This document shows positions 1,223-34,609 of a stretch of DNA of 38,422 nucleotides, piece by piece. Below the pieces are notes generated by a model, which did not search any database, was not told the origin of the DNA, and saw nothing but the letters and a program-made list of their open reading frames with translations. The DNA comes from a virus. Lineage: Duplodnaviria; Heunggongvirae; Uroviricota; Caudoviricetes. The stretch spans positions 1 to 38,422 of IMG/VR virus record IMGVR_UViG_2925919700_000005; one strand, written 5' to 3'. Every line of letters begins with the position of its first letter. Positions within the stretch are counted from its first letter, which is position 1. Position numbers and translations under genes: made by a program.

Positions 1223-1316
1223 AACGCGTTATAAATAATAGTGAGAAAGATGTTGAACGGGTCAACGTCTACGGGGGAGAACATCCCCCGCTTAACTTTT
1301 AAGAGGATATAAAACT

Positions 1317-1601
1317 ATGGCTACTTTTATTACCTATGCTGTCATCATTACTATTCTGGCTGCTATCTCTGCTTATAAACTCGGAACCGAACCGAAAGAA
1401 CGAGGCGAATTATTCTTAGGTGCGTTTGTTGCATTTGCTAGCCTTGCGTTAATTGTCGAAGGAATTTCTTATATTGTTGGCCTAGTTAGTATGACACTTT
1501 TTAACTTCCATCCAACTATTGCTATGCATTTGATGCTGACCGTACTTTGGGTATATTGCTTAATCGAATTTTTAACGTTTGTTTTCAAACAGACTAAATA
1601 A
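1317..1601 (+). CDS. small integral membrane protein (94 aa)
   Basis: AGAGGA SD; translation is dominated by hydrophobic helices. Confidence 0.6.
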   Translation: MATFITYAVIITILAAISAYKLGTEPKERGELFLGAFVAFASLALIVEGISYIVGLVSMTLFNFHPTIAMHLMLTVLWVYCLIEFLTFVFKQTK

Positions 1602-1758
1602 TATTGTAATCTGCCATTTCTCCTTATGTGGTTTTAACAGGGAATTTTCGAAAGAGAGTTCCCGATTAAAAGCCATAAAACACATTCAGTACAGTGTTTT
1701 CATAGTCAGTGACTATACAACATAAAAACATAACAAGTATAGATTGAGTATTAATCCT

Positions 1759-1785
1759 CCCGCCCTTCGGGGCGGTTATTTTTCT
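1759..1785 (+). terminator. Rho-independent terminator (UUCG-loop hairpin + T-run)
   Basis: CCCGCCC-TTCG-GGGCGG followed by TTATTTTT. Confidence 0.7.
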
Positions 1786-1851
1786 GGCTTTACTAGATAA
1801 TGTAGCATTATAACCTCATCTTTGTTGTGCAAACCTAACCTAAACTTACTA

Positions 1852-1877
1852 GGGACTCTTCGGAGTCCCTTTTTTTA
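1852..1877 (+). terminator. Rho-independent terminator (UUCG-loop hairpin + T7)
   Basis: GGGACTC-TTCG-GAGTCCC followed by TTTTTTT; abuts the 3' end of the leftward gene 1875..2816. Confidence 0.7.
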
Positions 1878-2816
1878 TTGGCAGTAAGAAAAGTTAGTAC
1901 CGTACATTTCATCATGAAGCATTGCAGCATTGCGTTTCTGTTCTTCTTCCTCATCTTCTACATCACTAGAAAAATGAGATTTGCCCTTAAAAGAACGAAG
2001 TAATTGCAGTGCAGCCATCGGATCACGCATCACATCGATTTTCAATTCTACTTCATCATTTGCGGCCTCATCAGCCGCGTTTTCAACTACTGCTACCGGA
2101 GCAACTTCTTTAGCTTTCAGTTCTTCAATCTCAGATTTCTGTGCTTCGATAATCTGGTCTTTTTCTTCCAGTGCAGCTTTCAGTTCTGCGATCTGTGCTT
2201 CCAGTGCAGCAAAGCGATCTTCAACAACCGGAGAAACAGCATTCACCTGTGCTTCCAGTTCCAGAAATGCTTCGCAAGATTCAATACGTTCTTTCTCTTC
2301 ACCTTCATAAGCAACCAGTTCTACAACTTCTTTTTCGGTAGCGTGGCTGTTAAAGAATACAGCAAAGTAAGGATTGCCAGATTTAGTGAAGTTCAGTTTA
2401 GCTTTTCCGGTAACTTCTTTACGACGACCGAAGGTGATCTGGCAATCAGCGGTATCCTGAAAATCCATGTTAGGAGCGGAAACGATAGCAGTATCACCAG
2501 CAATAACCAGGTGGAACAGTTCAGAAGAGTTCTTAACGGTAAAAGTAACGATGTGGTCTACTGCAACGTCTTTAGCAGGTTTAACGCGGTCGATTGCTTT
2601 ACGAATGCCGTTAGGCAGTTTACCGTCAACACCAAAGCCAGCCGCGATCAGTGCTTCACGATGTGCTTTAAAGCCAGCGAAAGCGGATTTCTGCTGTGCA
2701 AAGGAAACATGAGCAACAACTTTCGGCTGAATCTTCTTGTTTGCTTCTGTGCCAAATTTGATAACTGCTTTAGCGTTGGTTACTTCGTTAGTGAAAAAGT
2801 TAGCGGAAAATAACAT
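1875..2816 (-). CDS. hypothetical protein (313 aa) with central coiled coil and acidic C-terminal region
   Basis: Long ORF with strong AGGAG SD 9 nt upstream of the ATG; heptad-like segment EAQIAELKAALEEKDQIIEAQKSEIEELKAKE; plus-strand ORFs inside it are treated as shadows. Confidence 0.7.
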   Translation of the reverse strand: MLFSANFFTNEVTNAKAVIKFGTEANKKIQPKVVAHVSFAQQKSAFAGFKAHREALIAAGFGVDGKLPNGIRKAIDRVKPAKDVAVDHIVTFTVKNSSELFHLVIAGDTAIVSAPNMDFQDTADCQITFGRRKEVTGKAKLNFTKSGNPYFAVFFNSHATEKEVVELVAYEGEEKERIESCEAFLELEAQVNAVSPVVEDRFAALEAQIAELKAALEEKDQIIEAQKSEIEELKAKEVAPVAVVENAADEAANDEVELKIDVMRDPMAALQLLRSFKGKSHFSSDVEDEEEEQKRNAAMLHDEMYGTNFSYCQ

Positions 2817-2859
2817 TATAAATACTCCTGTGGAAAGTTAGTTTTAATTGTTCATTTCA

Positions 2860-2899
2860 AGCCTCCTTTGCTGCAACAAGGGAGGCTTTTTCTTTTTTA
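2860..2899 (+). terminator. GC hairpin with T-run between two leftward genes (plus-sense terminator or mRNA structure)
   Basis: AGCCTCC ... GGAGGCT followed by TTTTTCTTTTTT. Confidence 0.4.
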
Positions 2900-2928
2900 A
2901 AGCCATCATATAATTCTCAGTCAAAGTA

Positions 2929-3111
2929 TTAGTAAACCTCTGCGGTTATCTTTACTTTAATGTCATACTTCTTTAAGAGTTTGTGGAAGGTTGATTGATC
3001 AATACCTTCACCTTTAAACCATTCACCCATCACTACATCAGGTGTCAGTTCAAAATAACGCTTTGCCATTTCTAAAACGATTTCACGAGTGAACTTAACA
3101 GGTCGTGCCAT
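2929..3111 (-). CDS. small hypothetical protein (60 aa)
   Basis: AGGAGG SD immediately upstream (minus strand); ATATAAATAATAGTGAG box ~55 nt upstream. Confidence 0.55.
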   Translation of the reverse strand: MARPVKFTREIVLEMAKRYFELTPDVVMGEWFKGEGIDQSTFHKLLKKYDIKVKITAEVY

Positions 3112-3246
3112 CTTGAATCCTCCTAAATCTGGATTAATGATTTCTTAAAAAAGAGCGTTAACCGCTCACTATTATTTATATGGGGATTGTATTTTATTTT
3201 TCAACCCCTCACACTTATCTCTTATATATGTATTTATAACAGAGAT

Positions 3247-3403
3247 ATGTTAAAATGTTATTCAGATGTTATCAGACGTGTTAAATGTGTTAAACCGCAG
3301 CACGAATTGCTAAAGCGGAGAGCACGAATTAACCAAATTGATGTATATTCAATCAATTTAGCAAAAAGGCATAGCACTTTTTGCTAAAGCGGTGAGCATT
3401 AAT
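3247..3403. repeat. Phased TGTTA repeats plus two ~24-bp direct repeats (TTGCTAAAGCGG(A/T)GAGCA...)
   Basis: TGTTA recurs five times at ~9-12 bp spacing (3248-3293); TTGCTAAAGCGGAGAGCACGAATT (3307-3330) and TTGCTAAAGCGGTGAGCATTAATT (3380-3403). Confidence 0.6.
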
Positions 3404-3630
3404 TGAGCTATGAATTGTAAAGATTTGTTACAAGATTTTCTCTCAGATCCAAATCTTCACAGGCATATAACAATTTAACACGGTGATAACAATAGGAAGG
3501 AAAATCGGTAAATTTTCACTTTCAATACAAATATTATAACATATTTATCTCGAATTTTCAAGTATACCACCGATCCTACACAGTGTCAACAAAGGATTTT
3601 CAAACCTACACTAGCCCTACACTATGAAAA

Positions 3631-3870
3631 TTGCCCCTGAATTTTGCCCCTGAACCAAAATCCCCTAGATTTCACTATCCCATTTTTGCCCCTGAAACCT
3701 ACTATTTTTGCCCCTGAAATTCTGGGAAACAGTGATTTTGCCCCTCATTTTTGCCCCTGAAATGCCAATAATTGCCCCTGAAAATCTAATTTTTGCCCCT
3801 GAAATTTGCCCCAGAAAAGGATTGGTGAGAAAAACTCTTTATAAAACATTAACTTAGCGAGGGGCAAAAG
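3631..3870. repeat. Iteron-like array of ~9 direct copies of TTTTGCCCCTGAA with one inverted copy
   Basis: Copies at ~3631, 3642, 3683, 3705, 3736 (variant CTCA), 3748, 3772, 3790, 3805 (variant CCAGAA); inverted copy GAGGGGCAAAAG at 3859-3870; spacers are 10-30 bp and irregular. Confidence 0.8.
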
Positions 3871-4012
3871 CGGGGGATCGGGTGTGCATAGATATTATAT
3901 AACACATTCGCTACGCTCATGTGTAAAACCAAAAACAACAAATAACCAAAAAGATATTAGGAGGGCGTAGCCCGACTGCGCGAAGCGCTAACCAATTACT
4001 TCTAGTAACACT

Positions 4013-4240
4013 AATTTAAACTAGATGATACTAGATGGTCTTAGAAGGAATTAACTAGTTTGCTCGCTCGCTTCGCTCACTCTCAAACGTCTGCGACGCC
4101 ACTGCGTGGCATCGAGAATCACTTCTGAAAGGATTTTCTTGAAAGGGATTTTAAACTAGTTACTAACTGATTCTAGAAAGATAGTAATAATCACTTTGAA
4201 GATAATAGTAGTTAACTGGTTACTAGATGATTCTAGATCA
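4013..4240. repeat. Three copies of a ~17-25 bp ACTAGATGAT(A/T)CTAGA-type direct repeat flanking a GC-rich structured core
   Basis: ACTAGATGATACTAGATGG (4020-4038), AACTAGTTACTAACTGATTCTAGAAAG (~4153-4180), AACTGGTTACTAGATGATTCTAGATCA (~4212-4238); GC-rich inverted repeats in 3961-4110. Confidence 0.6.
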
Positions 4241-4266
4241 CTTTAATGATCATGAAAGGTATTGGT

Positions 4267-4296
4267 TATCCCTTCGGGATTGCAACCTTCGGTTGC
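4267..4296 (+). other. Two tandem UUCG-tetraloop hairpins
   Basis: ATCCC-TTCG-GGAT and GCAACC-TTCG-GTTGC back to back. Confidence 0.5.
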
Positions 4297-4500
4297 TAAA
4301 TTGCTTCCGGATTATTATTTCTCCAAAAGAAAGATTCTTATATTCTAAAGATACTTCTTCGTTTTGATGATGATTTAATCAAAATCTATGAAGGAGGCGA
4401 AGCCGACTGAATACCAATTCCTTTCAAATTAGACAAAAATTTCTCGTTATAAATAATAGTGAACTTACTTTGATTCACTTTCTTTTAGAGGATTTCCACT

Positions 4501-4953
4501 ATGATCAATACTAAAACTCCTTTCATTCTTCTGGGTCTGAACCATGATGATAATCTGGCTATGATGCATGTTTTCGCTAATCGTGGTTATAACATCATTC
4601 GTCATTCCGAAGACTCCAATTTCTCAACTGCTTTCTATGCTCTTAAACGTAATGGTCGCCCTACGGTGATCGTAGACTGCTTTACTGATGAAGGTCGTGA
4701 ACAATACAACAACATTCCGGCAATTATTGTTCGTGATGACCTGCCGTTTGATGTTCGTGAATATGACGTTGATTTAGGCTCTTACTATGGGATCGCCGAT
4801 CTTGACCAGATTATGGCTGATTATGGTAAACAACCCGCTCAGGAAGCCCCAGAACACGATGAACAAGACGAAGATGACGACGACTACACACCAATCTGTT
4901 TCTCTTCTCACGGTGGCTTCTACGGTTACGATGAAGGCTTAGATATGCTGTAA
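4501..4953 (+). CDS. hypothetical acidic protein (150 aa); N-terminal pattern faintly resembles a receiver/flavodoxin-like fold
   Basis: GAGGA SD; CGTTATAAATAATAGTGA box 40 nt upstream; C-terminal run EHDEQDEDDDDY; alternating hydrophobic strands FILLG / YNIIRH / VIVDC / PAIIV. Confidence 0.6.
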   Translation: MINTKTPFILLGLNHDDNLAMMHVFANRGYNIIRHSEDSNFSTAFYALKRNGRPTVIVDCFTDEGREQYNNIPAIIVRDDLPFDVREYDVDLGSYYGIADLDQIMADYGKQPAQEAPEHDEQDEDDDDYTPICFSSHGGFYGYDEGLDML

Positions 4954-4975: not shown

Positions 4976-5017
4976 TTGTCAAGGGGTATTGACAAAATTT
5001 TCTGACTTTTTTATGAT
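4976..5017 (+). promoter_or_regulatory. Sigma70-like promoter (TTGACA, 17 bp spacer, TATGAT) overlapped by an inverted repeat TTGTCAA-N6-TTGACAA
   Basis: -35 TTGACA at 4989-4994, -10 TATGAT at 5012-5017; inverted TTGTCAA at 4976-4982; further TTGACA-like boxes at 5026 and 5045. Confidence 0.45.
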
Positions 5018-6508: not shown

Positions 6509-6742
6509 TCAAAAACCTGTTGCTTCTACGATCTGACCATCACCGATCTGAACATAGAATTTAATGTCTAACTTCTTAATATTCTTATAGAATTGGGCGA
6601 TTGAGATCCCATGTTCACTAAGAATCTGTTCTTTCGCTTCCTTACCACGATCCGCTGTATAATAAGCGTAGGCAATATCAGCCATTTGTTCAGCGTTAAA
6701 ACGGGCAGGACGACCGCGAGTAGCTTTAGTAGTCATAGTCAT
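6509..6742 (-). CDS. small basic protein with RGRP (AT-hook-like) motif; putative DNA-binding
   Basis: GGAGA SD; N-terminus MTMTTKATRGRPARF. Confidence 0.5.
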   Translation of the reverse strand: MTMTTKATRGRPARFNAEQMADIAYAYYTADRGKEAKEQILSEHGISIAQFYKNIKKLDIKFYVQIGDGQIVEATGF

Positions 6743-6770
6743 TTCTCCAAATTAAAGTGAATGTTCACCT

Positions 6771-7373
6771 TTATTTAGAGGACTTACATTTTATCGGAAA
6801 AAGTTCTCCATCGTCAATACTCATAAAGAACTCTGCCTTAATCCCGTACTTCTTCAACCGTGAATAGTATGTACCCCGACTTATATCAACCTTGCGAAGC
6901 ACTTCAAAGAACCCTTTAGGATCGTTGTAATAGTGGCTATAACGCACGTTAGCGAGTTCAACGAATAGTTCCCTTGTATCACCATAGCCTTTCTTGAAAG
7001 CCTCGTTACGATAGCGTGTAATTGCGTGATTCAATCTCTTCTGTTTCAACACTTCTCGGATCGGCTTCCACTGCAACCGATAGATAGGACCGTCATCCAC
7101 TCGATAATAACGCTTGATATCAAAATCAAACCAATCTCGGACTCTCCGAAACTCTGTATGTGATGTTCTATGCTTCTTAAAGAAGTTGTGAACGTCTGTA
7201 TAACCATTATCGCGGTAAAACTCTATTAAAATCTCTTTCGCTTCCTCACGACTAAAGCCAGATGTTGTGTAGTCGGTTTTTAAATGCTTATGCTTAACTG
7301 GTAAACGATATTCATGATCGGTACAAGACAAGGCTAATTCTAATTCATCTCTTTGTTGCTGATTAATTAGCAT
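6771..7373 (-). CDS. hypothetical protein (200 aa), transcribed divergently from the terminase large subunit gene
   Basis: AAGGGGGG SD upstream of the ATG (minus strand); basic and Tyr/Arg-rich; no recognisable family. Confidence 0.6.
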   Translation of the reverse strand: MLINQQQRDELELALSCTDHEYRLPVKHKHLKTDYTTSGFSREEAKEILIEFYRDNGYTDVHNFFKKHRTSHTEFRRVRDWFDFDIKRYYRVDDGPIYRLQWKPIREVLKQKRLNHAITRYRNEAFKKGYGDTRELFVELANVRYSHYYNDPKGFFEVLRKVDISRGTYYSRLKKYGIKAEFFMSIDDGELFPIKCKSSK

Positions 7374-7458
7374 ACAACCCCCTTTAATTAATACCCGTAT
7401 TTATCAAAATATCAACAATTTAATAAATACCTTCATATTTCGTAATGAGGGTAATTAC

Positions 7459-9363
7459 ATGAAACTGATTTCAAATAAGGCAAAATTAAAAAAGATTCTT
7501 AAAAATATCTCTGCGGCAATTCGCCCACCTAAAACGATGAAACCTAGCGAATGGGTAGAGGCTAATGTAGTTGCAACCGATGGTGTTAAAGCCGGATCGC
7601 TAATTAAATTGCATCCCTTCCAACGTGGAATGATGGACGCGATCACCGAAGACCGTAGAAAAATTGTGTTTAAATGTTCGGCACAGTTGGGTAAGACCAT
7701 GATTCTTAACGGAATTATCTTCCATCGGATCGCGAGTAACCCTACTAATATTGGGGTGTTGCAAAGTAACGTTAGAGAACTAAATTCTTGGATCGCTGGT
7801 AAGGTGAAGCCAGTATTAGAGGCAACGCCAGAATTAAAGGCGATGATCACCGACAAATCAGACCGTAATGCCGTTAACAACTCATCGATTATTCAGCTTC
7901 GTAACGGATCATTCATGTATTTCATGTCGCTGAACAGTCCATCACACTTGCGCGGTAAAACACTCCCTTTGATTATTCTTGATGAAGTTGATGCGGCTGA
8001 TGAGTCAGACGAAGGGAACCCGATCCAGCTAGCGGAACAACGCGCAACCACTTTCGGGGAAGATGCAAGGATCGTAATTGCTTCCACTCCAACCGCTCGT
8101 GATGGGGCGATTAACCAACAATGGGAACTCTCGGATAAGAGAAAATATCATGTCGTTTGCCAGCATTGCGGACACAAGCACGTAATGGAATGGAGTAACG
8201 TACATTTCGATTGGCATACGATTAACGGTAAATCATTACCCAACCCAGATACAGCCGTTTACCGTTGCCCTGAATGTGAAACCGACTGGACCGAAGGGGA
8301 TCGCCTACGTGCTGTTGCTCAGGGAGAATGGGTCGCCACCGAACCAAACGCGGAAGTAATCGGTTTTCATGCTAACCGCCTTATGTCTCCGTTTAGTTCT
8401 ATCCGTGCGTGTGTGGTGGACTTTGCTGATAGCTACGCGAATATGTCGCTGGCAACGTTCTATAATGTGGTGCTCGGTGAAACCTTCGATGATCTTAACG
8501 AAGACCGCACAGCCGACGAATTAGAAACGCTGAAAACTGATATTAGCCTAGACAATATTCCTGATGATGTACTGGCTCTGGTTGGTGGAGTTGACCAGCA
8601 AAAAGACCGTCTGGAATCTACCTTGCTGGGTATTTCTCGTAAAGGGCTATGCGTAGTTGATCACCGATCATTCTATGATGTGAACTGCGAACGCCACGAA
8701 TCACCAGCATATAACCAGCTTTACAACTTCCTGAAAGCGAAATTCTATACCCGATCCGGTCAACGAATCCCGATGTTATCTGCTTTCGTGGACTCATCGA
8801 ACGGACGAGCTACAAACGTGATCTATCGATTCTGCACACAATGGCAAAACCTAACAGCCATTAAAGGGGCAAGCAATGTTGATGCTCCAATCCTTCCGGT
8901 CAAGGACACAAGAACGGGTGGTTTTACTCTTAAAATTCTGGGCGTAAACAACCTTAAGACGATGATCCGTGAAATGATTAACCGGAACTTGAGAGACAGC
9001 GATCCTCATACGGTCTTCCAGATTGGTGACGTTCCTGATGACTATTGCGAGCAATTGTTATCTGAACAGTTGAAACGGCAGGGTAATACCACACGTTGGG
9101 TAAAAGTTGGTCAGCAACGAAACGAGGCTCTCGACTGCCTGGCTTACTCCTATGCTGCTTCTCGCCATGTACTCAATAAAATGTCATGGGAAAAACTCGA
9201 AGCCATCAAAGATAGTTTGAACCGTGAACCAGAAGAACCCGTAGAAGCTCCTAAATCGCAATCTAACGAGCAAATAGAAGAAACTAAGCCAATCACACGA
9301 CCGCAACGTCAAAACATCGCCAGACGTCCAAATAGAGGCCGTAGCTGGGTAACATCGTTCTAA
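7459..9363 (+). CDS. terminase large subunit (lambda gpA-like ATPase/nuclease)
   Basis: Walker A CSAQLGKT and Walker B LPLIILDEVD; Cys/His cluster CQHCGH...CPEC; 634 aa, immediately upstream of the portal gene. Confidence 0.9.
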   Translation: MKLISNKAKLKKILKNISAAIRPPKTMKPSEWVEANVVATDGVKAGSLIKLHPFQRGMMDAITEDRRKIVFKCSAQLGKTMILNGIIFHRIASNPTNIGVLQSNVRELNSWIAGKVKPVLEATPELKAMITDKSDRNAVNNSSIIQLRNGSFMYFMSLNSPSHLRGKTLPLIILDEVDAADESDEGNPIQLAEQRATTFGEDARIVIASTPTARDGAINQQWELSDKRKYHVVCQHCGHKHVMEWSNVHFDWHTINGKSLPNPDTAVYRCPECETDWTEGDRLRAVAQGEWVATEPNAEVIGFHANRLMSPFSSIRACVVDFADSYANMSLATFYNVVLGETFDDLNEDRTADELETLKTDISLDNIPDDVLALVGGVDQQKDRLESTLLGISRKGLCVVDHRSFYDVNCERHESPAYNQLYNFLKAKFYTRSGQRIPMLSAFVDSSNGRATNVIYRFCTQWQNLTAIKGASNVDAPILPVKDTRTGGFTLKILGVNNLKTMIREMINRNLRDSDPHTVFQIGDVPDDYCEQLLSEQLKRQGNTTRWVKVGQQRNEALDCLAYSYAASRHVLNKMSWEKLEAIKDSLNREPEEPVEAPKSQSNEQIEETKPITRPQRQNIARRPNRGRSWVTSF

Positions 9364-9435
9364 TAACTCGCCGTCCTTCGGGGCGGCTTACTCCTAAATA
9401 TTGTTAATCCAATAACAATTAAATAAGGGGTAATT

Positions 9436-9930
9436 ATGAGTTTAGAACTAATTCCCTTAGTAATTCGTAAAGGCGAAAAAATCACGCTGGCGAATGAAGA
9501 GGGTGTAACCATTCAGGTCGGAAATAGTAAAGCTATCGTTTATCAAGTCGATGATGCACCGGAAAATCACGAGATTAAAACATTAGATTTTGCCGAGGGT
9601 AAATATACCATCGTAATAACTTTTGATGAAGAACTGGTATCAATGCAGGAATTAACTGTTTTACCAGTCTTTGCCAAACAATCCAAAAAACAGTATCTGC
9701 GGGAAACTATCGCCTTAATCGAGCAAGTTATTTTCGCCCGTTTATCTGGGGACGAAGCCGCATTATCTGCAATGACCGTGAAAGGGAATACTTTCGCCTA
9801 TGAGTCATTGGGTGTTCTCCAGACTCTAAAAGTCGATTATGAACGTCAGTTATCTAAAGTAATTCAAGCCGAACGACGTAAACAGGGAATTAGCCCTATT
9901 AAAAATATCAAATTACGTCTTACGCGATAA
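9436..9930 (+). CDS. hypothetical head-assembly region protein (164 aa)
   Basis: AAGGGGTAATT-ATG initiation region; lies between the terminase and portal genes. Confidence 0.6.
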   Translation: MSLELIPLVIRKGEKITLANEEGVTIQVGNSKAIVYQVDDAPENHEIKTLDFAEGKYTIVITFDEELVSMQELTVLPVFAKQSKKQYLRETIALIEQVIFARLSGDEAALSAMTVKGNTFAYESLGVLQTLKVDYERQLSKVIQAERRKQGISPIKNIKLRLTR

Positions 9931-13647: not shown

Positions 13648-13676
13648 AGCCCTGCCTAACGGTGGGGCTTTTTTGT
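13648..13676 (+). terminator. Rho-independent terminator after the capsid gene
   Basis: AGCCCTGCC-TAAC-GGTGGGGCT stem followed by TTTTTTG. Confidence 0.7.
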
Positions 13677-13704
13677 ATGTAAATACTCCATAAAGGGGGT
13701 AACT

Positions 13705-13995
13705 ATGTTCAAATTATCAGAATCACAATTATCAAGAATGTTCCGAAGTGCTCCTGTATTTTCGGTGGAAGGTGGTAAATCAATTCGTGCTTATCATGAA
13801 ATTACTACTACCGACGAACAAGGGGTAATGACAGAAACAGAGTTTCTATTTTGTCGTGAGGGAGACTTAAAGCAAGGTGATATTGTCATTGTAGAAAATC
13901 AGCGTTTCAAAGTTCAATACGTTAAGCGCAATGGTGACAATACAACTGATTGCTTTATCACTCTGGCAGGGGGTACACATGCTCGCTACCGTTAA
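13705..13995 (+). CDS. putative head-tail connector/adaptor protein (96 aa)
   Basis: AAAGGGGGTAACT-ATG; position directly after the capsid gene; functional call is by position only. Confidence 0.5.
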   Translation: MFKLSESQLSRMFRSAPVFSVEGGKSIRAYHEITTTDEQGVMTETEFLFCREGDLKQGDIVIVENQRFKVQYVKRNGDNTTDCFITLAGGTHARYR

Positions 13996-15244: not shown

Positions 15245-15317
15245 TTGCTTCTCTAAATAAAACATGACGCGGGAGGTTAACGCCTCCCTTATTCCTGTTT
15301 TATAGTGAGGTGATTCG

Positions 15318-19482: not shown

Positions 19483-19784
19483 TGGCATTTTGGGTAGATG
19501 GTGCTTTAGGTAATAGAGCAGGTAAAGCGAATCAAGGATGGTTTGATATTCCTAACGGTTGGACACCTGACGCTTTCGGCACGGTTTCATTTGGTGCTCA
19601 TTCTTCTGGTGGTGGCGGTGGTGACTCAGAATTGCTTTTGCATGGCTTTTGTGTGTCTGGAAGTCATAAGGGTCATGATTGGGGACAGATCCATTCTTGT
19701 ATTGTGCCGCAAGGGGCGGTAATTACCGTTAGCACAAATAGGGGGGTCGCTCATCTTCGTTATAGACGTTTGAGCAACCGCTAA
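19482..19784 (+). CDS. glycine-rich small protein, paralog 3 of 3 (100 aa)
   Basis: ATG overlaps the paralog-2 stop (TAATG); DIPNGWTPDAFGTVSFGAHSSGGGGGD. Confidence 0.65.
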   Translation: MAFWVDGALGNRAGKANQGWFDIPNGWTPDAFGTVSFGAHSSGGGGGDSELLLHGFCVSGSHKGHDWGQIHSCIVPQGAVITVSTNRGVAHLRYRRLSNR

Positions 19785-19838
19785 ATAAATAGAATTACGG
19801 GTATGTGCCCTATTGTTTAAAATAGAAGGAAAAGAATA

Positions 19839-20320: not shown

Positions 20321-20349
20321 AGCCATCCTTCGGGGTGGCTTTTTTGTTT
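20321..20349 (+). terminator. Rho-independent terminator after the tail tube gene
   Basis: AGCCATCC-TTCG-GGGTGGCT followed by TTTTTTGTTT. Confidence 0.75.
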
Positions 20350-20606
20350 CCAATTCTAAATAAACATATCGAATTAACTTAAGAGGAAACAAGAATGAAT
20401 ATTAATGAAATGTTAGCCGCACTCTCTCCGAAACGTGAATCTTTGACCATCGGTGGATTCACTTTCTATGCTCGCCCTATGTCAGTAAAAGAATTTAACG
20501 AACATGTTTTCAATACTGATAAAGAAGACCGTGATGAACGTTCTATTCTTCGTTGTATTGAAGATGAAGACGGTAAGCCAGTATTTGAATCTATGGAACA
20601 AGTTAA

Positions 20607-20615
20607 GGCACTGTA
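20607..20615. repeat. IS10 target-site duplication, left copy (GGCACTGTA)
   Basis: Identical 9-mer immediately flanks both ends of the element. Confidence 0.95.
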
Positions 20616-21944
20616 CTGAGAGATCCCCTCATAATTTCCCCAAAACGTAACCATGTGTGAATAGATTTTGAGTAAGCAGGGTTGCAGCCACGAGTGAGTC
20701 TTCCCTTGTTATTGTGTAGCCAGAATGCCGCAAAACTTCCATGCCTAAGCGAACTGTTGAGAGTACGTTTCGATTTCTGACTGTGTTAGCCTGGAAGTGC
20801 TTGTCCCAACCTTGTTTCTGAGCATGAACGCCCGCAAGCCAACATGTTAGTTGAAGCATCAGGGCGATTAGCAGCATGATATCAAAACGCTCTGAGCTGC
20901 TCGTTCGGCTATGGCGTAGGCCTAGTCCGTAGGCAGGACTTTTCAAGTCTCGGAAGGTTTCTTCAATCTGCATTCGCTTCGAATAGATATTAACAAGTTG
21001 TTTGGGTGTTCGAATTTCAACAGGTAAGTTAGTTGCTAGAATCCATGGCTCCTTTGCCGACGCTGAGTAGATTTTAGGTGACGGGTGGTGACAATGAGTC
21101 CGTGTCGAGCGCTGATTTTTTCGGCCTTTAGAGCGAGATTTATACAATAGAATTTGGCATGAGATTGGATTGCTTTTAGTCAGCCTCTTATAGCCTAAAG
21201 TCTTTGAGTGACTAGATGACATATCATGTAAGTTGCTGATAGGTTTCCAGTTTTCCGCTCCTAGGTCTGCATATTGTACTTTTCCTCTTACTCGACTTAA
21301 CCAGTACCAACCCAGCTTCTCAACGGATTTATACCATGGCACTTTAAAGCCAGCATCACTGACAATGAGCGGTGTGGTGTTACTCGGTAGAATGCTCGCA
21401 AGGTCGGCTAGAAATTGGTCATGAGCTTTCTTTGAACATTGCTCTGAAAGCGGGAACGCTTTCTCATAAAGAGTAACAGAACGACCGTGTAGTGCGACTG
21501 AAGCTCGCAATACCATAAGCCGTTTTTGCTCACGGATATCAGACCAGTCAACAAGTACAATGGGCATCGTATTGCCCGAACAGATAAAGCTAGCATGCCA
21601 ACGGTATACAGCGAGTCGCTCTTTGTGGAGGTGACGATTACCTAACAATCGGTCGATTCGTTTGATGTTATGTTTTGTTCTCGCTTTGGTTGGCAGGTTA
21701 CGGCCAAGTTCGGTAAGAGTGAGAGTTTTACAGTCAAGTAAGGCGTGGCAAGCCAACGTTAAGCTGTTGAGTCGTTTTAAGTGTAATTCGGGGCAGAATT
21801 GGTAAAGAGAGTCGTGTAAAATATCGAGTTCGCACATTTTGTTGTCTGATTATTGATTTTTGGCGAAACCATTTGATCATATGACAAGATGTGTATCTAC
21901 CTTAACTTAATGATTTTGATAAAAATCATTAGGGGATTCATCAG
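20616..21944 (-). mobile_element. IS10 insertion sequence, complete (1329 bp)
   Basis: Ends CTGAGAGATCCCCTCATAATTTCCCC (inside end, 20616) and ...AAAATCATTAGGGGATTCATCAG (outside end, 21944); length 1329 bp; encodes the 402-aa IS10 transposase. Confidence 0.97.
20629..21837 (-). CDS. IS10 transposase
   Basis: 402-aa translation MCELDILHDSLYQFCPELHLKRL...HGYVLGKL matches the IS10/Tn10 transposase as I recall it; start is 107 bp inside the outside end. Confidence 0.97.
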   Translation of the reverse strand: MCELDILHDSLYQFCPELHLKRLNSLTLACHALLDCKTLTLTELGRNLPTKARTKHNIKRIDRLLGNRHLHKERLAVYRWHASFICSGNTMPIVLVDWSDIREQKRLMVLRASVALHGRSVTLYEKAFPLSEQCSKKAHDQFLADLASILPSNTTPLIVSDAGFKVPWYKSVEKLGWYWLSRVRGKVQYADLGAENWKPISNLHDMSSSHSKTLGYKRLTKSNPISCQILLYKSRSKGRKNQRSTRTHCHHPSPKIYSASAKEPWILATNLPVEIRTPKQLVNIYSKRMQIEETFRDLKSPAYGLGLRHSRTSSSERFDIMLLIALMLQLTCWLAGVHAQKQGWDKHFQANTVRNRNVLSTVRLGMEVLRHSGYTITREDSLVAATLLTQNLFTHGYVLGKL

Positions 21945-30360: not shown

Positions 30361-30378
30361 AATTTAATTCTAATAATT

Positions 30379-30418
30379 AATCCCGCTTAATTCTTTTGGG
30401 TTAGGCGGGATTATTTTT
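30379..30418 (+). terminator. Rho-independent terminator after the J-like gene
   Basis: AATCCCGC ... GCGGGATT followed by TTATTTTT. Confidence 0.7.
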
Positions 30419-30462
30419 ATCTAAATAATTCTGCCATTAAATTATAAAATATCGGGGGCGTA

Positions 30463-30741
30463 ATGACTGAAATTATATATGGCGGTATCGGTGTTATCGC
30501 CTTAATTTGTGGTGGTCTTTGGAGACTTCACCGAAATCAATTAGCAACAGAAAATAGATTGTCGAAATTAGAGTCCAATGATGCATTGTTTAATCAGAAG
30601 TTTGAAACAATGCAAAGTAACCACGACCAGATCGCCGAGAGAGTTTATCGCATGGAACAAACACTACACGGTATAGAGAAGAAAGTGGTTGCGATGGACG
30701 CCAAATTTGACCAAGTTCTCGACATACTCAAACAAAAATAA
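30463..30741 (+). CDS. membrane protein with one N-terminal TM helix and a coiled coil (holin- or spanin-like)
   Basis: TM segment IIYGGIGVIALICGGLW followed by a coiled-coil region; ATCTAAATAATTCTG box upstream; lies four genes upstream of the endolysin. Confidence 0.5.
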   Translation: MTEIIYGGIGVIALICGGLWRLHRNQLATENRLSKLESNDALFNQKFETMQSNHDQIAERVYRMEQTLHGIEKKVVAMDAKFDQVLDILKQK

Positions 30742-31615: not shown

Positions 31616-31653
31616 TCCATAAATACCCTCATAGAATCTTATGGGGGTATAAC
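31616..31653 (+). promoter_or_regulatory. Second copy of the CCCTCATA...TATGGGGG hairpin, sequestering the SD of the 31654 gene
   Basis: ACCCTCATA-GAATCT-TATGGGGGT; the right arm is the SD 7 nt upstream of ATG 31654. Confidence 0.45.
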
Positions 31654-32001
31654 ATGGCTAAAAATATTTTTACTGAATTTCCTACTTATCCGGTCGATCA
31701 GCTTTCCGGTATTTTTATTAATGGCATTAGCCCAGAATCCATGACACATGATTTTGAGGCGAAGAGAGTTAAACATAAACAATATAAAGAATGTATCCGC
31801 GATCATGAAAAAGGGACCGTGTTTTGTGTCGCTACATTGGCTAAACGTCCTAAGTATCGTTTTCGTGTAGGACAAGAAGTTGATGTGGTTAATCCTTATA
31901 GCTTTAACTGTCTGGGCGATGCACGCGCGGTGTGTGTAGGCACTGCTCCTTATTATATCAAGGGTATGCGCTTTATTGGTTATATCTTCGAAATGATCTA
32001 A
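31654..32001 (+). CDS. hypothetical protein (115 aa)
   Basis: ORF with GGGGG SD; Cys-containing; no recognisable family. Confidence 0.55.
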   Translation: MAKNIFTEFPTYPVDQLSGIFINGISPESMTHDFEAKRVKHKQYKECIRDHEKGTVFCVATLAKRPKYRFRVGQEVDVVNPYSFNCLGDARAVCVGTAPYYIKGMRFIGYIFEMI

Positions 32002-32010
32002 GGGGGTAAT

Positions 32011-32364
32011 ATGTTAAGTAAGCATTTTTCTCGCAAGGAATTTAAATGTAAATGCGGAAAATGTGATTATGATACAATCGACGCTGAATTACTGGTGATT
32101 CTTGAGGATGTACGCGAACACTTCGGGAAACCAGTAATTATTAACAGTGGGAACCGTTGTCCGACTCATAACAAGAATGTAGGCGGTGCAACCAACAGCT
32201 ATCACGTTCGAGGTCGTGCGGCTGACATTGTGGTCAAGGGTGTCTCCCCTGATATTGTCCATGCTTATCTTGATGGGAAATATCCTACTCAATACGGCTT
32301 AGGCAAATATAAAACCTTTACGCATATTGATTCCAGATCAAAAAAATCACGGTGGAATGGATAA
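32011..32364 (+). CDS. endolysin, peptidase M15 family (zinc D-Ala-D-Ala carboxypeptidase / L-Ala-D-Glu peptidase type)
   Basis: SYHVRGRAADIVV (S-x-H-x-x-G-x-A-x-D) and a downstream THID motif form the Zn-binding H-D-H pattern; N-terminal FSRKEFKCKCGKC is typical of this family; AGGGGGTAAT-ATG. Confidence 0.8.
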   Translation: MLSKHFSRKEFKCKCGKCDYDTIDAELLVILEDVREHFGKPVIINSGNRCPTHNKNVGGATNSYHVRGRAADIVVKGVSPDIVHAYLDGKYPTQYGLGKYKTFTHIDSRSKKSRWNG

Positions 32365-32396
32365 AACAAAAGCGCCTCTAGTGGGCGCTTTTTTGT
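32364..32396. terminator. Bidirectional rho-independent terminator between convergent genes
   Basis: AAGCGCC-TCTAGT-GGGCGCTT flanked by an A-run upstream and a T-run downstream. Confidence 0.7.
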
Positions 32397-33886
32397 TATA
32401 TGGCAATTGTTTTAGTTGCATAGCTGAACTTGTCGGTTAGATAATAGCGGATTCTCTCAAGTGCATGTTTTACCGCATAATTTTTATGCTTGACTTTTCC
32501 GTTACGACCGAATATACACAGATGATCGATAAGATCCCAGACCGTTGCAATGTCTTTCGAACCATGTTTACGCAATGCACGACCGATACTCTGACGAACG
32601 ATAGTTGATTCCTTCACGGGATGACCGAAAATAACATGGTGCAAATTCTTAATTGAAACACCAGTAGAGAAAACACCATAGGATGCAACGCAAATGATCC
32701 CTGTTTCCCCTTCCGCTAATTTCTTAAATTCATCACGTTCTTCTGTCTTAACTCCACCGTCAATATAATAAACCTTGTCGTGTACCTTCTGTAACGCGTC
32801 ATACATAAGTTTTCCGTGCTTAGTATTGCGGAACATCAGGAATACGTTTTCTCCCTTCTTAGCGAGTTTTAGCGCCAAATTACAAGCAAACTTATTTCGT
32901 CGTGGATTAGACGTAATATACTTGATCTCTTCCGCATATTCTCTACCCTTAACCGCGCTACATTCCTCATCGGTATAACGAAGGAAAAGACAGTTAATTT
33001 TCAGTTTTGTCACCTGCCCTTCTTCCATCAGGCGGTCAATACTCACGATCTTAGAAATATCACCGAAAAGCCCGACATACTGCATTAAATGGCACTTTGA
33101 TTCTTTCGGGGAACCAGTCATGCCGATCTTAAATTGGCAATGATTCATTCCGTTAATGATATTGGTAATATTTTTGGCACTAGCCTTATGCGATTCATCA
33201 ACTATCAACATTCCATATTGTTTGAACCATTCAGGAGGCATCTTGCACGCTGATTGCCAGGTACTAACCGTGATTAACCTGTCTCCCGGATGTTTCCCGC
33301 TACCACTCATCATTGTATGAATTGCTTCATAAGGGAATAGCCTATAATCGATGAAATCATCCCTCATTTGAACCACTAGCGATGTAGTAGGGACAATGAT
33401 TAACACTTTTCCGGTGTAATGCTCTAAGTACCAACGAGACAGCATACAAGCAATCAATGACTTACCCGCACTGGTAGGAAGAACCAGCATTCTACGGCGA
33501 TTATGAATACCCTGAAAGACTGCCTCCCTTTGATACCAGTAAGGATTGATTTTATTGGAACCGGAATACACTTCTAGGGAATCAATCCATTCATTAATCG
33601 CGTCTTTGGTTACATCTTCCTTCTCAAGCAATCGCGGGTCAATCCAGACTGAATAGCCCATATTTTTAACGAAGACACCCAACGTTTTTAATAGTCCAAT
33701 TGGTAGGGTATTTTCATGCGTAAACAGTCTTATTCGTCCATCCCAGCCGGAATACTTGTAGCGGGGGCTAAACCTAGCCCCTTCAACCTCAAACGAGAAA
33801 TAATCCCTTAATTCCATTCCGATAGAAGGAGAGCAATCAACCTTAACGAAACTGTAATCTTGAAAATGAATTTTAATATCTTGCAT
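32396..33886 (-). CDS. UvsW-like SF2 DNA helicase
   Basis: Walker A LPTSAGKS, IIVPTT, DExH box IVDESH and VWDLIDH; overall resemblance to T4 UvsW as recalled; start set to ATG 33886, overlapping the upstream stop. Confidence 0.8.
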   Translation of the reverse strand: MQDIKIHFQDYSFVKVDCSPSIGMELRDYFSFEVEGARFSPRYKYSGWDGRIRLFTHENTLPIGLLKTLGVFVKNMGYSVWIDPRLLEKEDVTKDAINEWIDSLEVYSGSNKINPYWYQREAVFQGIHNRRRMLVLPTSAGKSLIACMLSRWYLEHYTGKVLIIVPTTSLVVQMRDDFIDYRLFPYEAIHTMMSGSGKHPGDRLITVSTWQSACKMPPEWFKQYGMLIVDESHKASAKNITNIINGMNHCQFKIGMTGSPKESKCHLMQYVGLFGDISKIVSIDRLMEEGQVTKLKINCLFLRYTDEECSAVKGREYAEEIKYITSNPRRNKFACNLALKLAKKGENVFLMFRNTKHGKLMYDALQKVHDKVYYIDGGVKTEERDEFKKLAEGETGIICVASYGVFSTGVSIKNLHHVIFGHPVKESTIVRQSIGRALRKHGSKDIATVWDLIDHLCIFGRNGKVKHKNYAVKHALERIRYYLTDKFSYATKTIAI

Positions 33887-34455
33887 TAGTTCCACTCCAC
33901 ACTTGCAATATTCTTTATATTGTTTAGTGATTTATTGCAGTAGTGGAATGTTTCAGTTTTGCCGTATTCAATCCCGCCTATACCCACATCCAGTAATCTC
34001 TTTATTGCTCTTTCAGTGGCTAAAGCATGTTTCATTGATGGCATTTCACCAGCAAAGACAATATCAAAGTTATGACCGGGATTGCGTACACCCAGATTAA
34101 TGCGTCGCTTGATGATTGACTTTGTTACACCAAATTTACCAATATCCCCTGATTTCATTACATAGAGATAAGGCACACCCGCTTTATATTGAAAGTAATC
34201 ACTTTTGAGACATGCACAGCGTTTACCTTCATTAAGCAGGTTGGTAGCTGATTTGTCGGCTCTATTGCCGCATCGGGTACATGTAAGAGCAATTCTTGAA
34301 TGAAGCCCTTTAAACTCACCCAGAAAGCCATGAAAGACTAACGGTAAGTCCTTCTCTTTGATGTGAGTCAGAATGCGTTGTTCTAATGCCGATGGAGTTA
34401 CAGCACGGGAGGATTTAGGAGTAAAAACAATATCTTTAGCCATTACTGGAATCAT
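33886..34455 (-). CDS. GIY-YIG-like (T5orf172-type) protein with N-terminal zinc ribbon; possible homing endonuclease or DNA-binding nuclease
   Basis: CTRCGN...CAC Cys cluster followed by YLYVMKSGDIGKFGVTKSIIKRR (GIY-YIG-like Y-x-Y...K-F-G-x-T...R pattern). Confidence 0.5.
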   Translation of the reverse strand: MIPVMAKDIVFTPKSSRAVTPSALEQRILTHIKEKDLPLVFHGFLGEFKGLHSRIALTCTRCGNRADKSATNLLNEGKRCACLKSDYFQYKAGVPYLYVMKSGDIGKFGVTKSIIKRRINLGVRNPGHNFDIVFAGEMPSMKHALATERAIKRLLDVGIGGIEYGKTETFHYCNKSLNNIKNIASVEWN

Positions 34456-34609
34456 ATAGACCTCACTTTTTTAACTTATAGGCATAACCTCAATATGGTT
34501 GGTTTGGGATTTAGGGTCGCGTATTATACACATTCAGATAGAGAATGCAATAGTAAGACAATTTTCTCTAATAAATAGTAGTGAGCTTATTATTTTAGAG
34601 GAAACTACT

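Follow-up and report, generated by a model that had tools for sequence, protein, structure and literature searches.

The element and its four near-identical boxes

The window, that is, the whole 38,422-nt stretch of DNA analysed here, is a complete siphovirus-like 38.4-kb element inserted in ycdX of E. coli, with the two halves of ycdX at its ends. The element carries an integrase and the genes for small and large terminase, portal, protease–capsid fusion, tail tube, tape measure, tail tip, fibres, and endolysin. No replication or repressor genes are recognisable in it. Its G+C content is 41%, and that of phage RB49 is 40.5% (PMC1524935). The element family is present in ~1% of complete E. coli genomes, and its core genes include those for three HTH-like paralogues and a Rha-family protein.

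A sequence-only reading of the window had described near-identical boxes of 17–19 bp upstream of four genes, and the sequences are found at those positions (Table 1). The 15-mer TATAAATAATAGTGA occurs exactly at 1230–1244 (+), 3166–3180 (−), and 4448–4462 (+), and a fourth copy at 34570–34584 (+) has two mismatches. With up to three mismatches allowed, the window contains nine matches to TATAAATAATAGTGA, compared with 2.5 ± 1.7 in shuffled sequences, none of which (0/100) reaches nine. All four boxes face the start codons assigned to them (1317+, 3111−, 4501+, and 34610+), and lie 72, 54, 39, and 25 nt from them, in agreement with the proposed spacing of 25–75 nt. Box 1 is followed by two stem-loops (1252–1266 and 1272–1290). 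The predicted start site of box 2 coincides with the first base of a hairpin (3153–3167), which is followed by a T-run (3147–3152). The octamer of box 4 is AATAAATA; an A at −13 is present in 9 of 50 T4 late promoters (PMC2988020).

Table 1 Boxes, further TAAATA-type sites, and the genes behind the boxes. Start sites are predicted by analogy, following the T4 rule (~6 nt beyond the octamer).
Feature	Position	Strand	Sequence and context
Box 1, class A	1227–1245	+	cgtTATAAATAATAGTGAg; octamer 1230–1237; upstream of ORF 1317–1601; predicted start G1243
Gene behind box 1	1317–1601	+	94-aa predicted membrane protein, no known family
Box 2, class A	3165–3181	−	aTATAAATAATAGTGAg; octamer 3173–3180; upstream of ORF 2929–3111 (−), then 1875–2816 (−); predicted start G3167 (−)
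Genes behind box 2	1875–3111	−	60-aa HTH-like protein (2929–3111); 313-aa coiled-coil protein (1875–2816)
Box 3, class A	4445–4462	+	cgtTATAAATAATAGTGA; octamer 4448–4455; upstream of p150 (4501–4953); predicted start G4461
Gene behind box 3	4501–4953	+	p150: alpha/beta domain, disordered acidic linker, conserved C-terminus ...GLDML
Box 4, class A, A(−13) variant	34569–34585	+	tAATAAATAGTAGTGAg; upstream of nuclease gene 34610–35785; predicted start G34583
Gene behind box 4	34610–35785	+	391-aa nuclease, CapR + MUG113/T5orf172 domains; RefSeq annotation GIY-YIG
Class-A-like TCTAAATAAAGGTGA	6765–6779	−	Upstream of 77-aa HTH-like ORF 6509–6742 (−)
Full TATAAATA	400–407	−	31 nt upstream of ORF 63–368 (−), p101, homologue of a Krischvirus ORFan
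Second full TATAAATA	3231–3238	−	Upstream of box 2, same leader; conserved in L002, L140, L143
Full TATAAATA	37880–37887	−	30 nt upstream of signal-peptide ORF 37604–37849 (−); conserved in L147–L149
Divergent ATAAATA pair	7396–7429		7398–7405 (−) to p200 (6771–7373, −); 7422–7429 (+) to large terminase 7459–9363
Class B CTAAATA	9394–9400	+	Directly after terminator 9371–9386; 35 nt upstream of ORF 9436–9930
Class B tgTAAATA	13678–13685	+	After terminator 13660–13677; 19 nt upstream of ORF 13705–13995
Class B CTAAATA	15253–15259	+	Upstream of tail-fibre gene 15318–18839
Class B CTAAATA	20356–20362	+	After terminator 20322–20347; upstream of ORF 20395–20619
Class B CTAAATA	30421–30427	+	After terminator 30378–30413; upstream of ORF 30463–30741
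Class B caTAAATA	31618–31625	+	Upstream of ORF 31654–32001
gaTAAATA	629–636	+	16 nt upstream of small terminase gene 653–1222

Distribution, classes, and conservation of the TAAATA sites

The four boxes stand out as the closest matches within a larger set of sites. Among the hexamers in the 100-nt stretches preceding the 40 ORFs, TAAATA is the commonest, with 20 occurrences in the forward orientation and three in the reverse complement. The count in dinucleotide shuffles is 5.6 ± 2.3 and reaches at most 14 in 1000 of them, and the 43 regions upstream of flanking host genes contain five occurrences. With ~20 TAAATA-type sites preceding genes along the whole element, the original count of four is too low; a scan of the whole genome recovers the four boxes and adds members that had been missed, namely TATAAATA three times, TCTAAATAAAGGTGA, and ~12 (C/A)TAAATA sites before the structural genes. 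The perfect octamer TATAAATA occurs seven times in the element, and five of these copies are correctly placed upstream of genes.

The sites fall into two classes. Class A has the full TATAAATA at accessory genes, often followed by nTAGTG, and class B has CTAAATA or ATAAATA at structural genes. The full TATAAATA is present at 17 of 29 non-structural-gene sites versus 3 of 28 structural-gene sites (Fisher p = 2e-4), and a GTG follows the octamer by three to four nt at 13/29 versus 1/28 (Fisher p = 4e-4), in accordance with the suggestion of a distinct promoter class. Across 37 distinct sites, the class A flanks take the form aaAaa-N9-11-TAAATA-nTAGTG, which places an A-tract 10–13 nt upstream. 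These flanks (A-tract and TAGTG) are not found in 50 kb of RB49, suggesting that a further element-encoded factor may be involved.

The sequence-only reading doubted that the spacing to a −35-like hexamer is sigma-70-like, and no −35 element is conserved: the position table over 20 sites is flat from −20 to −3. Boxes 1, 2, and 4 are not called in a sigma-70 scan, and no box has a TG upstream of the octamer. Box 3 gives a weak fit (10/12, as TAGACA-16-AATAAT). The boxes lack the features of a sigma-70 promoter, namely a TTGACA-like −35 hexamer at a spacing of 16–18 bp from a TATAAT-like −10 element carrying T at −7, or a TGn extended −10. Sigma-70-like sites are rarer in the window than in shuffles. 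In the ATAGTGA variant, the AATAAT stretch matches the sigma-70 −10 hexamer at five of six positions.

The octamer TATAAATA is fixed, with drifting flanks, in relatives from E. coli, Salmonella, Proteus, and metagenomes. It is the invariant part of the box in relatives from four genera, which bears out the likeness to T4 late promoters noticed earlier. Identity over 15–19 nt is lineage-specific; in relatives the extensions drift independently at each site (ATAGTGA, CTAGTGT, TAAGTGA, ATATTAG, and GATATGT). Box 1 reads TATAAATAATAGTGA, TATAAATAAATGTATGA, or CTAAATATATGTGA in relatives. The octamer of box 2 is invariant in 16 distinct variants, all of which retain the hairpin and the T-run, with compensatory changes in the stem. 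The octamer is also invariant upstream of p150 orthologues, where the flanks diverge (nine E. coli loci, Proteus, Salmonella, and a metagenome contig), and upstream of HTH60 orthologues (E. coli, Proteus, Salmonella, and metagenome relatives). Sites orthologous to the class-A-like site are CTAAATAATAGTGT in Proteus and CTAAATATAAGTGA in Salmonella. In L147 and L148, two relatives, box 4 stands before different cargo genes. The divergent ATAAATA pair is present in Proteus, Salmonella, and metagenome relatives as well. The gaTAAATA of the small terminase gene is conserved in L140 and Salmonella L151; at the same gene, metagenome L153 has tcTAAATA and Proteus L150 has gaTAAATA farther upstream.

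Relationship to T4-like phages and the T4 late factors

T4 late promoters are a textbook system, regarded as belonging to T4-related phages that encode gp55, gp33, and gp45, and are read by RNA polymerase that carries gp55, together with gp33 and the sliding clamp gp45. Such a promoter has an 8-bp TATA box that spans −13 to −6 and lacks a −35 element, and CTAAATA is the promoter form in phage Aeh1 (PMC2988020, PMC1524935). The element has the same octamer or its documented variants (A at −13, as in AATAAATA, or C at −12, as in CTAAATA), no conserved −35 element, and sites close upstream of genes and often behind terminators. RB49 late genes carry TATAAATA (genes 51 and uvsW), CTAAATA (gene 26 and uvsY.-2), and AATAAATA (uvsW.1 and inh), and the late promoter annotated in the RB49 record is tCTAAATA. 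Unlike T4 late promoters, the sites of the element lie on an integrated siphovirus-like element without gp55, gp33, and gp45, the full consensus is found at accessory rather than structural genes, and class A has the A-tract and the TAGTG start region unseen in the sampled RB49 DNA.

The element has recent DNA in common with RB49-like (Krischvirus) phages, with which it has exchanged DNA repeatedly. Its uvsW is 84% identical in nucleotide sequence to that of these phages, and its tail-fibre tip is 84.5% identical to phage G37-3 over 3.4 kb and up to 96% identical to other T4-like phages. Protein p101 has 60% identity to an ORFan found only in Krischvirus, and the nuclease of box 4 has its best phage relatives in Krischvirus and T5-like phages. 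The nuclease and uvsW are variable cargo, missing from many relatives. In Krischvirus, the p101 homologue lies behind sigma-70 promoter-plus-stem-loop promoters, and the phage genomes searched contain no homologue of the p150, HTH, and Rha genes, which indicates that the promoters did not just arrive along with T4-like genes. In a set of 50,697 phage genomes, the capsid finds its best match, at 43%, in the chimeric DCP80 record, where a syntenic structural module with gtTATAAATAa after its terminators is co-assembled with a T4-like genome. The record is scrambled, and its meaning is uncertain.

A T4-like genome encodes its own gp55, gp33, and gp45, whereas no homologue of them is found in the element by PHROGs, Pfam, or NCBIfam. 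In accordance, phmmer --max searches with authentic gp55, gp33, and gp45, covering all six-frame ORFs of 40 aa or more from the window and 14 related loci, yield no E-value better than 0.47, and no sigma-like structure in the PDB matches the AlphaFold models of p200 and p150. The conserved acidic tail of p150, with its C-terminal ...LDML, resembles the clamp-binding tails of gp33, gp55, and gp43. A novel regulator or replication initiator could be among p313, p150, p110, HTH60, HTH77, p200, and Rha. An iteron array at 3618–3816 may be a sign that the element has its own origin. No copies in excised or episomal form are seen, and no relative has been isolated as a phage.

Possible readers of the sites

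We infer that the sites act as T4-late-type promoters. The best explanation is that they would be read in trans by the late machinery of a T4-like helper, as in a satellite or provirophage, which we propose tentatively, as somewhat short of an even chance. Each box would consist of one −10-like element, with TATAAATA spanning −13 to −6, and would lack a −35 element. The four boxes would represent the full-consensus class A serving accessory and regulatory genes, with a family-specific A-tract and nTAGTG at the predicted start, and the ~20 TAAATA sites would wire the whole element, its structural operons being placed on the weaker CTAAATA/ATAAATA variants behind terminators. When a T4-like phage infects an element-carrying cell, host RNA polymerase would be loaded with helper gp55 and gp33, the helper sliding clamp would activate the loaded polymerase, and the element promoters would fire. 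The accessory genes with the perfect consensus would respond strongest, and the element would then build its own siphovirus-like particles at the expense of the helper. The sequence-only reading called the box genes early, a label that finds no support; the T4 analogy would make them late.

Since the element has T4-type boxes and no T4 late sigma factor, it may depend on a superinfecting T4-like phage. The helper mechanism is suggested by the lack of gp55, gp33, gp45, and a recognisable replication module, together with the repeated exchange of DNA with Krischvirus. The case for helper dependence is circumstantial, comprising the helper-type promoters and the lack of recognised replication, repressor, and late-transcription genes. 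The full octamer at only 3/28 structural-gene sites speaks against a T4-late reading.

The main alternative, which we consider less likely, is that the element is an autonomous temperate phage with an unrecognised late regulator of its own, the T4 likeness being convergent. Host sigma-70 polymerase would use TAAATA, TATAAA, or AATAAT as a weak −10 element, and an element-encoded activator or sigma-appropriating protein would add the rest, with HTH60, HTH77, p200, and the Rha-like protein as candidates. The class A flanks, conserved across the 37 sites and not found in the RB49 sample, suggest a family-specific reader. The AATAAT match within the box, the sigma-70 score of box 3, and the HTH-like and Rha-family core proteins are consistent with it, strong sigma-70 promoters at 3533–3589 (−) and 4989–5017 (+) could drive an early regulatory cascade, and the iterons could be the origin of such a phage. 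However, three of the four boxes have neither a −35 element nor a TG extension, the critical T at −7 is missing from TAAATA, the full set has no conserved activator site, and the variant spectrum matches that of RB49 late genes. In addition, none of the relatives is a phage isolate, the best capsid match is the 43% to the DCP80 record, and no replication genes are recognised.

It is improbable that the boxes are mainly protein-binding or recombination sites, either operators of a repressor silencing the accessory genes or cassette boundaries that shuffle cargo in the manner of the PeSLs of RB49-like phages. Identical 15–18-mers within one genome do suggest gene conversion or cassette exchange, box 4 is retained before different cargo genes, the extension variants are spread as a mosaic among relatives, and the stem-loops after boxes 1 and 2 recall PeSL cassettes, which likewise have a short conserved promoter beside a GC-rich stem-loop, repeated within a genome and bordering variable cargo (PMC2839356, PMC4122927). 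The PeSL promoter, however, is a sigma-70 consensus early promoter (seen in G37-3) next to a stem-loop flanking ORFans; the element has the stem-loop and the cargo, and its promoter is of the TATAAATA type. Dyad symmetry is absent from the box, conservation across genera covers precisely the T4 −10 octamer rather than the whole box, and the orientation (20 forward versus 3 reverse) and the distance to start codons are those of promoters. A role in shuffling would be compatible with promoter function and would not replace it. Least probable by far, and already disfavoured, are inert relics, late promoters carried in passively with T4-like genes and functionless in the element. T4-like DNA was clearly acquired (uvsW, fibre tip, and p101), but the boxes precede family-specific genes with no phage homologue and are conserved across the E. 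coli, Salmonella, Proteus, and metagenome relatives, p101 stands behind sigma-70 promoters in Krischvirus and not behind TATAAATA, and import by this route is impossible for the TAAATA sites before non-T4 structural genes.

T4-like phages usually degrade or silence host DNA, and RB49 carries denA. Host-DNA degradation weighs against a helper reading, as do the AATAAT match, the class A flanks, the iterons, the proteins that may hide a regulator, the variability of uvsW and the nuclease, the lack of excised copies, and the scrambled state of DCP80.

The virophages and provirophages Sputnik and Mavirus are small, have their own capsid genes, and are without transcription or replication machinery. 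They carry the late-promoter motif of the helper virus before their genes, integrate in the host, and are awakened by helper infection. The element may be a bacterial counterpart of the provirophages, without its own replication and late transcription and carrying a Krischvirus-type late-promoter code, which is possible if doubtful. The likeness is by analogy only; Sputnik and Mavirus are eukaryotic systems with unrelated proteins, and the helper dependence of the element is a proposal. Such a counterpart would be a complete particle-forming, siphovirus-like element integrated in the chromosomes of E. coli, Shigella, Salmonella, and Proteus, and its transcription, and probably its replication, would be restricted to cells under infection by a T4-like phage. 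Its full-consensus boxes would drive hijacking genes, p150 among them. Further members would be a second subfamily with AATAAATA promoters and the DCP80 module with TATAAATA promoters.

Phage satellites (PLE with ICP1, PICI, cf-PICI, and P4) are similar to the element in being integrated with an integrase, in the apparent lack of an autonomous cycle, in cargo hotspots, and in the association with one particular helper lineage. Satellites lack most or all virion genes and obtain them from the helper, whereas the element has a complete head, tail, fibre, and lysis gene set; to our knowledge, the known phage satellites have either no such virion genes or just those for the capsid. The element shows no recognisable Pri-Rep or alpha-type replication module. 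The proposed hijack would also differ in working via the promoter specificity of the helper.

The boxes are of interest because the element is not a T4-like phage and has no cognate sigma factor, a point that the sequence-only reading had missed. We found no prior description, and our searches brought up no satellite or hyperparasite of T4-like coliphages. If true, the helper reading would point to a new way to parasitise a virulent phage, by copying its promoter specificity, in a whole family of non-T4 elements that are integrated and lack those factors. A full virion gene set combined with the promoters of a helper would blur the line between prophage, satellite, and virophage, and could explain how virulent and integrated elements pass T4-type tail-fibre tips and further genes to one another. 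If the helper reading is wrong, the family would still provide, in ~1% of complete E. coli genomes, a late-transcription system yet to be characterised.

The four boxes and the T4 late promoter

The four boxes picked out by the sequence-only reading are all present when the sequence is re-read (see the table). Three carry exact copies of the 15-mer TATAAATAATAGTGA, box 4 carries a variant, and boxes 1 and 3 have 18 nt in common (CGTTATAAATAATAGTGA). Each box is oriented toward its gene, the start codon of which lies 25-72 nt downstream. When up to three mismatches are allowed, the 15-mer has 9 matches in the window, compared with 2.5 ± 1.7 in shuffled sequences, and 9 is reached by no shuffle. 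Exact matches in the viral contigs scanned are mostly single chance matches in AT-rich contigs; several copies occur only in relatives of the element, the integrated siphovirus-like E. coli element that fills the window.

The box core contains the octamer TATAAATA. The T4 late promoter consists of this 8-bp sequence at -13 to -6, without a -35 element; gp55 recognises it together with gp33 and the gp45 clamp. Position -13 is A in 9 of 50 T4 sites, its T is poorly conserved among RB49 and other relatives, and CTAAATA is the form used by phage Aeh1 (PMC2988020, PMC1524935, PMC3184105). Among RB49 late genes, 51 and uvsW have TATAAATA, 26 and uvsY.-2 have CTAAATA, and uvsW.1 and inh have AATAAATA; in the RB49 record, tCTAAATA is the sequence annotated as the late promoter. 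The sites of the element show the same mixture of variants as these genuine late genes, and the resemblance to the T4 late promoter suggested earlier holds for the octamer and its variants.

A T7-like promoter, first suspected as the reverse complement is CTCACTAT, is rejected because the orientation of the boxes tracks that of the genes and the element does not belong to the T7-like phages. By-eye comparison with consensus sequences finds no fit to an IHF site, alternative host sigma factors or a MotA box. The spacing had been called not obviously sigma70-like; in accordance, only box 3 of the four receives a sigma-70 fit, and a weak one. Sigma-70-like sites are rarer in the window than in shuffles.

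Features of the window discussed in the text
Feature	Position	Strand	Detail
ORF p101	63-368	-	101 aa
Small terminase	653-1222		PHROGs/Pfam
Box 1	1227-1245	+	TATAAATAATAGTGA at 1230-1244; gene start 1317 (+); predicted transcription start (T4 rule) G1243
Candidate small RNA	1594-1790	+	~175 nt; terminator 1760-1785
TATAAATA at start of ORF 1875-2816 (-)	2817-2824	+	
HTH60	2929-3111	-	HTH-like
Box 2	3165-3181	-	TATAAATAATAGTGA at 3166-3180; gene start 3111 (-); predicted start G3167 (-)
ORF-less stretch	3190-4440		1.3 kb
Strong sigma-70-like promoters	3533-3589	-	sigma-70 scan; two in tandem, near consensus, aimed left
Iterons	3618-3816		~8 direct repeats of TTTTTGCCCCTGAAA
Box 3	4445-4462	+	TATAAATAATAGTGA at 4448-4462; gene start 4501 (+); predicted start G4461
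p150	4501-4953	+	
Strong sigma-70-like promoter, third and last	4989-5017	+	sigma-70 scan; aimed right
HTH77	6509-6742	-	HTH-like
p200	6771-7373	-	200 aa; two HTH-like modules
Large terminase, lambda gpA-type	7459-9363		PHROGs/Pfam
TAAATA-type sites immediately after terminators	9394, 13678, 20356, 30421		
CTAAATA sites in capsid fusion gene	12003, 12369, 12447	+	coding strand
Distal long-fibre gene and three small genes	16404-19800		
Three tandem paralogous genes	18878-19784		~100 aa; period 302 nt
IS10	20626-21944		DDE transposase 20629-21837 (-); RNA-OUT 21830-21899
Endolysin	32011-32364		PHROGs/Pfam
Cargo hotspot	32396-35785		endolysin to integrase
Box 4	34569-34585	+	AATAAATAGTAGTGA at 34570-34584; gene start 34610 (+); predicted start G34583
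Large serine recombinase	35859-37538	-	PHROGs/Pfam

TAAATA sites across the element family

A motif scan of the whole window bears out the boxes themselves, but a membership of four is too narrow, as the TAAATA motif is genome-wide. The window has 33 copies, 21 of them within the intergenic 11% of the sequence, and nearly all intergenic copies face a start codon at a distance of 10-120 nt. TAAATA is the commonest hexamer in the 100 nt upstream of 40 ORFs (20 forward versus 3 reverse-complement copies), at 12 times its genome-wide frequency; among 1000 dinucleotide shuffles the count is 5.6 ± 2.3 and reaches 14 at most. Adjacent host genes have 5 occurrences in 43 upstream regions. The base directly before the hexamer is A at 12 sites and C at 6, the one preceding it is mostly T, and the full set has no conserved position farther upstream.

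Sites at accessory and regulatory genes are distinguishable from those at structural genes. In a sample of the window and its Proteus, Salmonella and metagenome relatives, full TATAAATA occurs at 17 of 29 non-structural and 3 of 28 structural sites (Fisher p = 2e-4), and GTG follows the octamer by three to four nt at 13/29 and 1/28, respectively (Fisher p = 4e-4). The consensus of class A (full-octamer sites at accessory and regulatory genes), from 37 distinct sites, is aaAaa-N9-11-t(t/a)(a/c)TAAATA-n-TAGTG. Class A flanks are specific to the element family, because no TAAATAnTAGTG is found in the 50 kb of RB49 scanned. T4-like late promoters of the DCP80 record (PQ671644.1, 'Escherichia phage DCP80') commonly have GT immediately ahead of the predicted start site. 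Therefore, the boxes, proposed earlier as a distinct class, define a real subclass, with the full consensus and family-specific flanks.

Nine E. coli loci, Proteus, Salmonella and a metagenome contig all have an unchanged octamer upstream of their p150 orthologues, amid differing surroundings. Upstream of the 60-aa HTH gene, TATAAATA is retained in 16/16 distinct variants, all of which have a GC hairpin and T-run 5-9 nt after the octamer, with compensatory stem changes (GAGCG/CGCTC, AGAGC/GCTCT, AAGGGC/GCCCTT). The ATAGTGA extension drifts (CTAGTGT, TAAGTGA, ATATTAG, GATATGT, AATGTATGA) and has a mosaic distribution among relatives.

Some sites may serve other ends. The three CTAAATA sites inside the protease-scaffold-capsid fusion gene, kept in the related locus L140, could act as promoters within the gene or reflect codon usage alone. 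The TATAAATA copy that abuts the start codon of ORF 1875-2816(-) overlaps the SD-ATG spacer (AGGAGTATTTATAATG on the minus strand), and it is probably conserved as part of the ribosome-binding site rather than as a plus-strand promoter. CTAAATAatattgtaa, within the 3' end of ORF 1317-1601 and kept in L140 and L141 as CTAAATAATAGTGTAA, is aimed into an ORF-less stretch with strong RNA folding (z = -5.8) that ends at a terminator and is a candidate small RNA.

The element and its T4-like connections

PHROGs and Pfam also identify a portal protein, protease-capsid fusion, tail tube, tape measure, tail tip and fibres. The same element is placed between two ycdX halves in E. coli ETEC1703 (NZ_CP122923); therefore, the 38,422-base window is the whole element. 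Strain UTME-12 is another carrier. The uvsW match had suggested part of a T4-like genome, which is rejected, as the structural genes are siphovirus-like and ycdX halves bound the window. Of 5,426 complete E. coli genomes, 63 carry the element's first 8 kb. Relatives are inserted at ycdX, hicB or codB, and further ones are found in Salmonella, Proteus columbae and metagenome contigs; none is found in the GTDB species-representative genomes scanned. No excised or episomal copies are seen in public assemblies, where the ~40-kb contigs checked have chromosomal flanks.

No replication gene or repressor is recognised in the element with PHROGs, Pfam, NCBIfam and PADLOC, and PADLOC and NCBIfam return nothing meaningful for the accessory proteins. 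The conserved ORF-less stretch between boxes 2 and 3 could be an origin, packaging site or control region. IS10, the RNA-OUT of which is the single Rfam match in the window, interrupts the tail module and is absent from the ETEC1703 copy, so the window's copy may be defective. The cargo hotspot holds uvsW, a 189-aa CapR-domain protein and a 391-aa nuclease; in relatives L147-L149 it holds other genes or none.

The uvsW gene is 84% identical in nucleotide sequence to RB49-like phages (Krischvirus). The long-fibre segment is 84.5% identical to Krischvirus G37-3, and parts of it reach 96% identity with other T4-like phages, which indicates recent exchange of receptor-binding modules. P101 has 60% protein identity to an ORFan limited to Krischvirus (JSE, G37-3, G2494, others); the Krischvirus copy lies in an early region behind sigma-70 promoters of the PeSL type (promoter-plus-stem-loop cassette), whereas the element copy has a perfect TATAAATA. 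The box-4 nuclease has Krischvirus and T5-like homing endonucleases as nearest relatives. All other accessory proteins lack a homologue in the phage collection searched; therefore, the promoters were not imported with T4 genes. The G+C content is ~41% for the element and 40.5% for RB49 (PMC1524935).

The best capsid match among 50,697 phage genomes (43%) is to the DCP80 record, which is labelled T4-like Gaprivervirus but is scrambled. With rIIA in triplicate, genes 46 and 47 in duplicate, T4's own gp23, and spackle and rpbA in both orientations, it looks like a chimeric or scrambled assembly. It opens with a syntenic, siphovirus-like module of 25 kb that shares 30-50% protein identity with the window and is joined to a T4-like genome. 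The module has TATAAATA promoters, its operons being preceded by gtTATAAATAa after terminators; the T4-like part has repeated gtTATAAATAaa(a/t)gtatgaaaac cassettes. A second subfamily (IMG/VR contigs L160-L166, isolate genomes) has gtAATAAATA upstream of genes. In L160-L166, 9-18 such sites lie on the gene strand versus 2-5 on the other, the capsid shares 59-65% identity with its counterpart in the DCP80 module, and G+C is 39%.

Candidate readers and possible lifestyles

The profile libraries PHROGs, Pfam and NCBIfam detect no gp55, gp33 or gp45 homologue in the element. With the authentic proteins from the T4-like part of DCP80 as queries, phmmer --max against six-frame ORFs of at least 40 aa from the window and 14 related loci gives a best E-value of 0.47. 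HTH60, HTH77 and p200 have an HTH-like motif in common (...STFHKLLKKYDIK, ...IAQFYKNIKKLDIK, ...GTYYSRLKKYGIK), and none matches a known family or fold. The conserved p200, which adjoins the terminase gene, is modelled by AlphaFold as two repeats of three helices and a beta-hairpin, and the p150 model combines an alpha/beta domain and an acidic, disordered tail; neither model has a Foldseek match in the PDB at E <= 0.001.

After its acidic linker, p150 ends in a motif, [G/A/S][L/F][D/E/Q]ML, conserved in E. coli (...GLDML in the window), Proteus (GLQML), Salmonella (AFDML) and a metagenome relative (SLEML(R)). The motif is similar to the hydrophobic-acidic tails with which gp33 (...TLDFLL), gp55 and gp43 bind the clamp (PMC2988020), and it loosely fits a beta-clamp motif. 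This putative clamp-binding tail is consistent with trans-activation, but only as a lead. The Rha-like protein also has a conserved hydrophobic C-terminal motif, (S/T)L..FG(I/L).

We tentatively favor a reading of the sites as late promoters of the T4 type, with a superinfecting T4-like phage serving them in trans. Against it, the flanks of class A are specific to the family, uvsW and the nuclease belong to the variable cargo, and a T4-like infection may destroy host DNA. In addition, the proteins of no known family and the iteron array could give the element autonomy; an autonomous system with an unrecognised regulator is, on balance, unlikely. Box 4 is retained before different cargo genes in L147 and L148; that the boxes are operators or cassette elements only seems improbable, and that they are inert relics hardly credible.

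The promoter type is known. In the literature covered, which was not exhaustive, no account is found of its use by a family of integrated, non-T4 elements without cognate factors, of this family itself or of T4-type promoters on a prophage-like element; the closest in concept are PeSL cassettes (PMC2839356, PMC4122927), virophages and satellites of virulent phages. Under trans-activation, a superinfecting T4-like phage, probably of Krischvirus type, would supply the factors serving the element's promoters, and the element would be a particle-forming satellite that depends on a helper, comparable with a provirophage. The finding might mark a new lifestyle, a suggestion we regard as less likely than not but with a substantial chance of being right.
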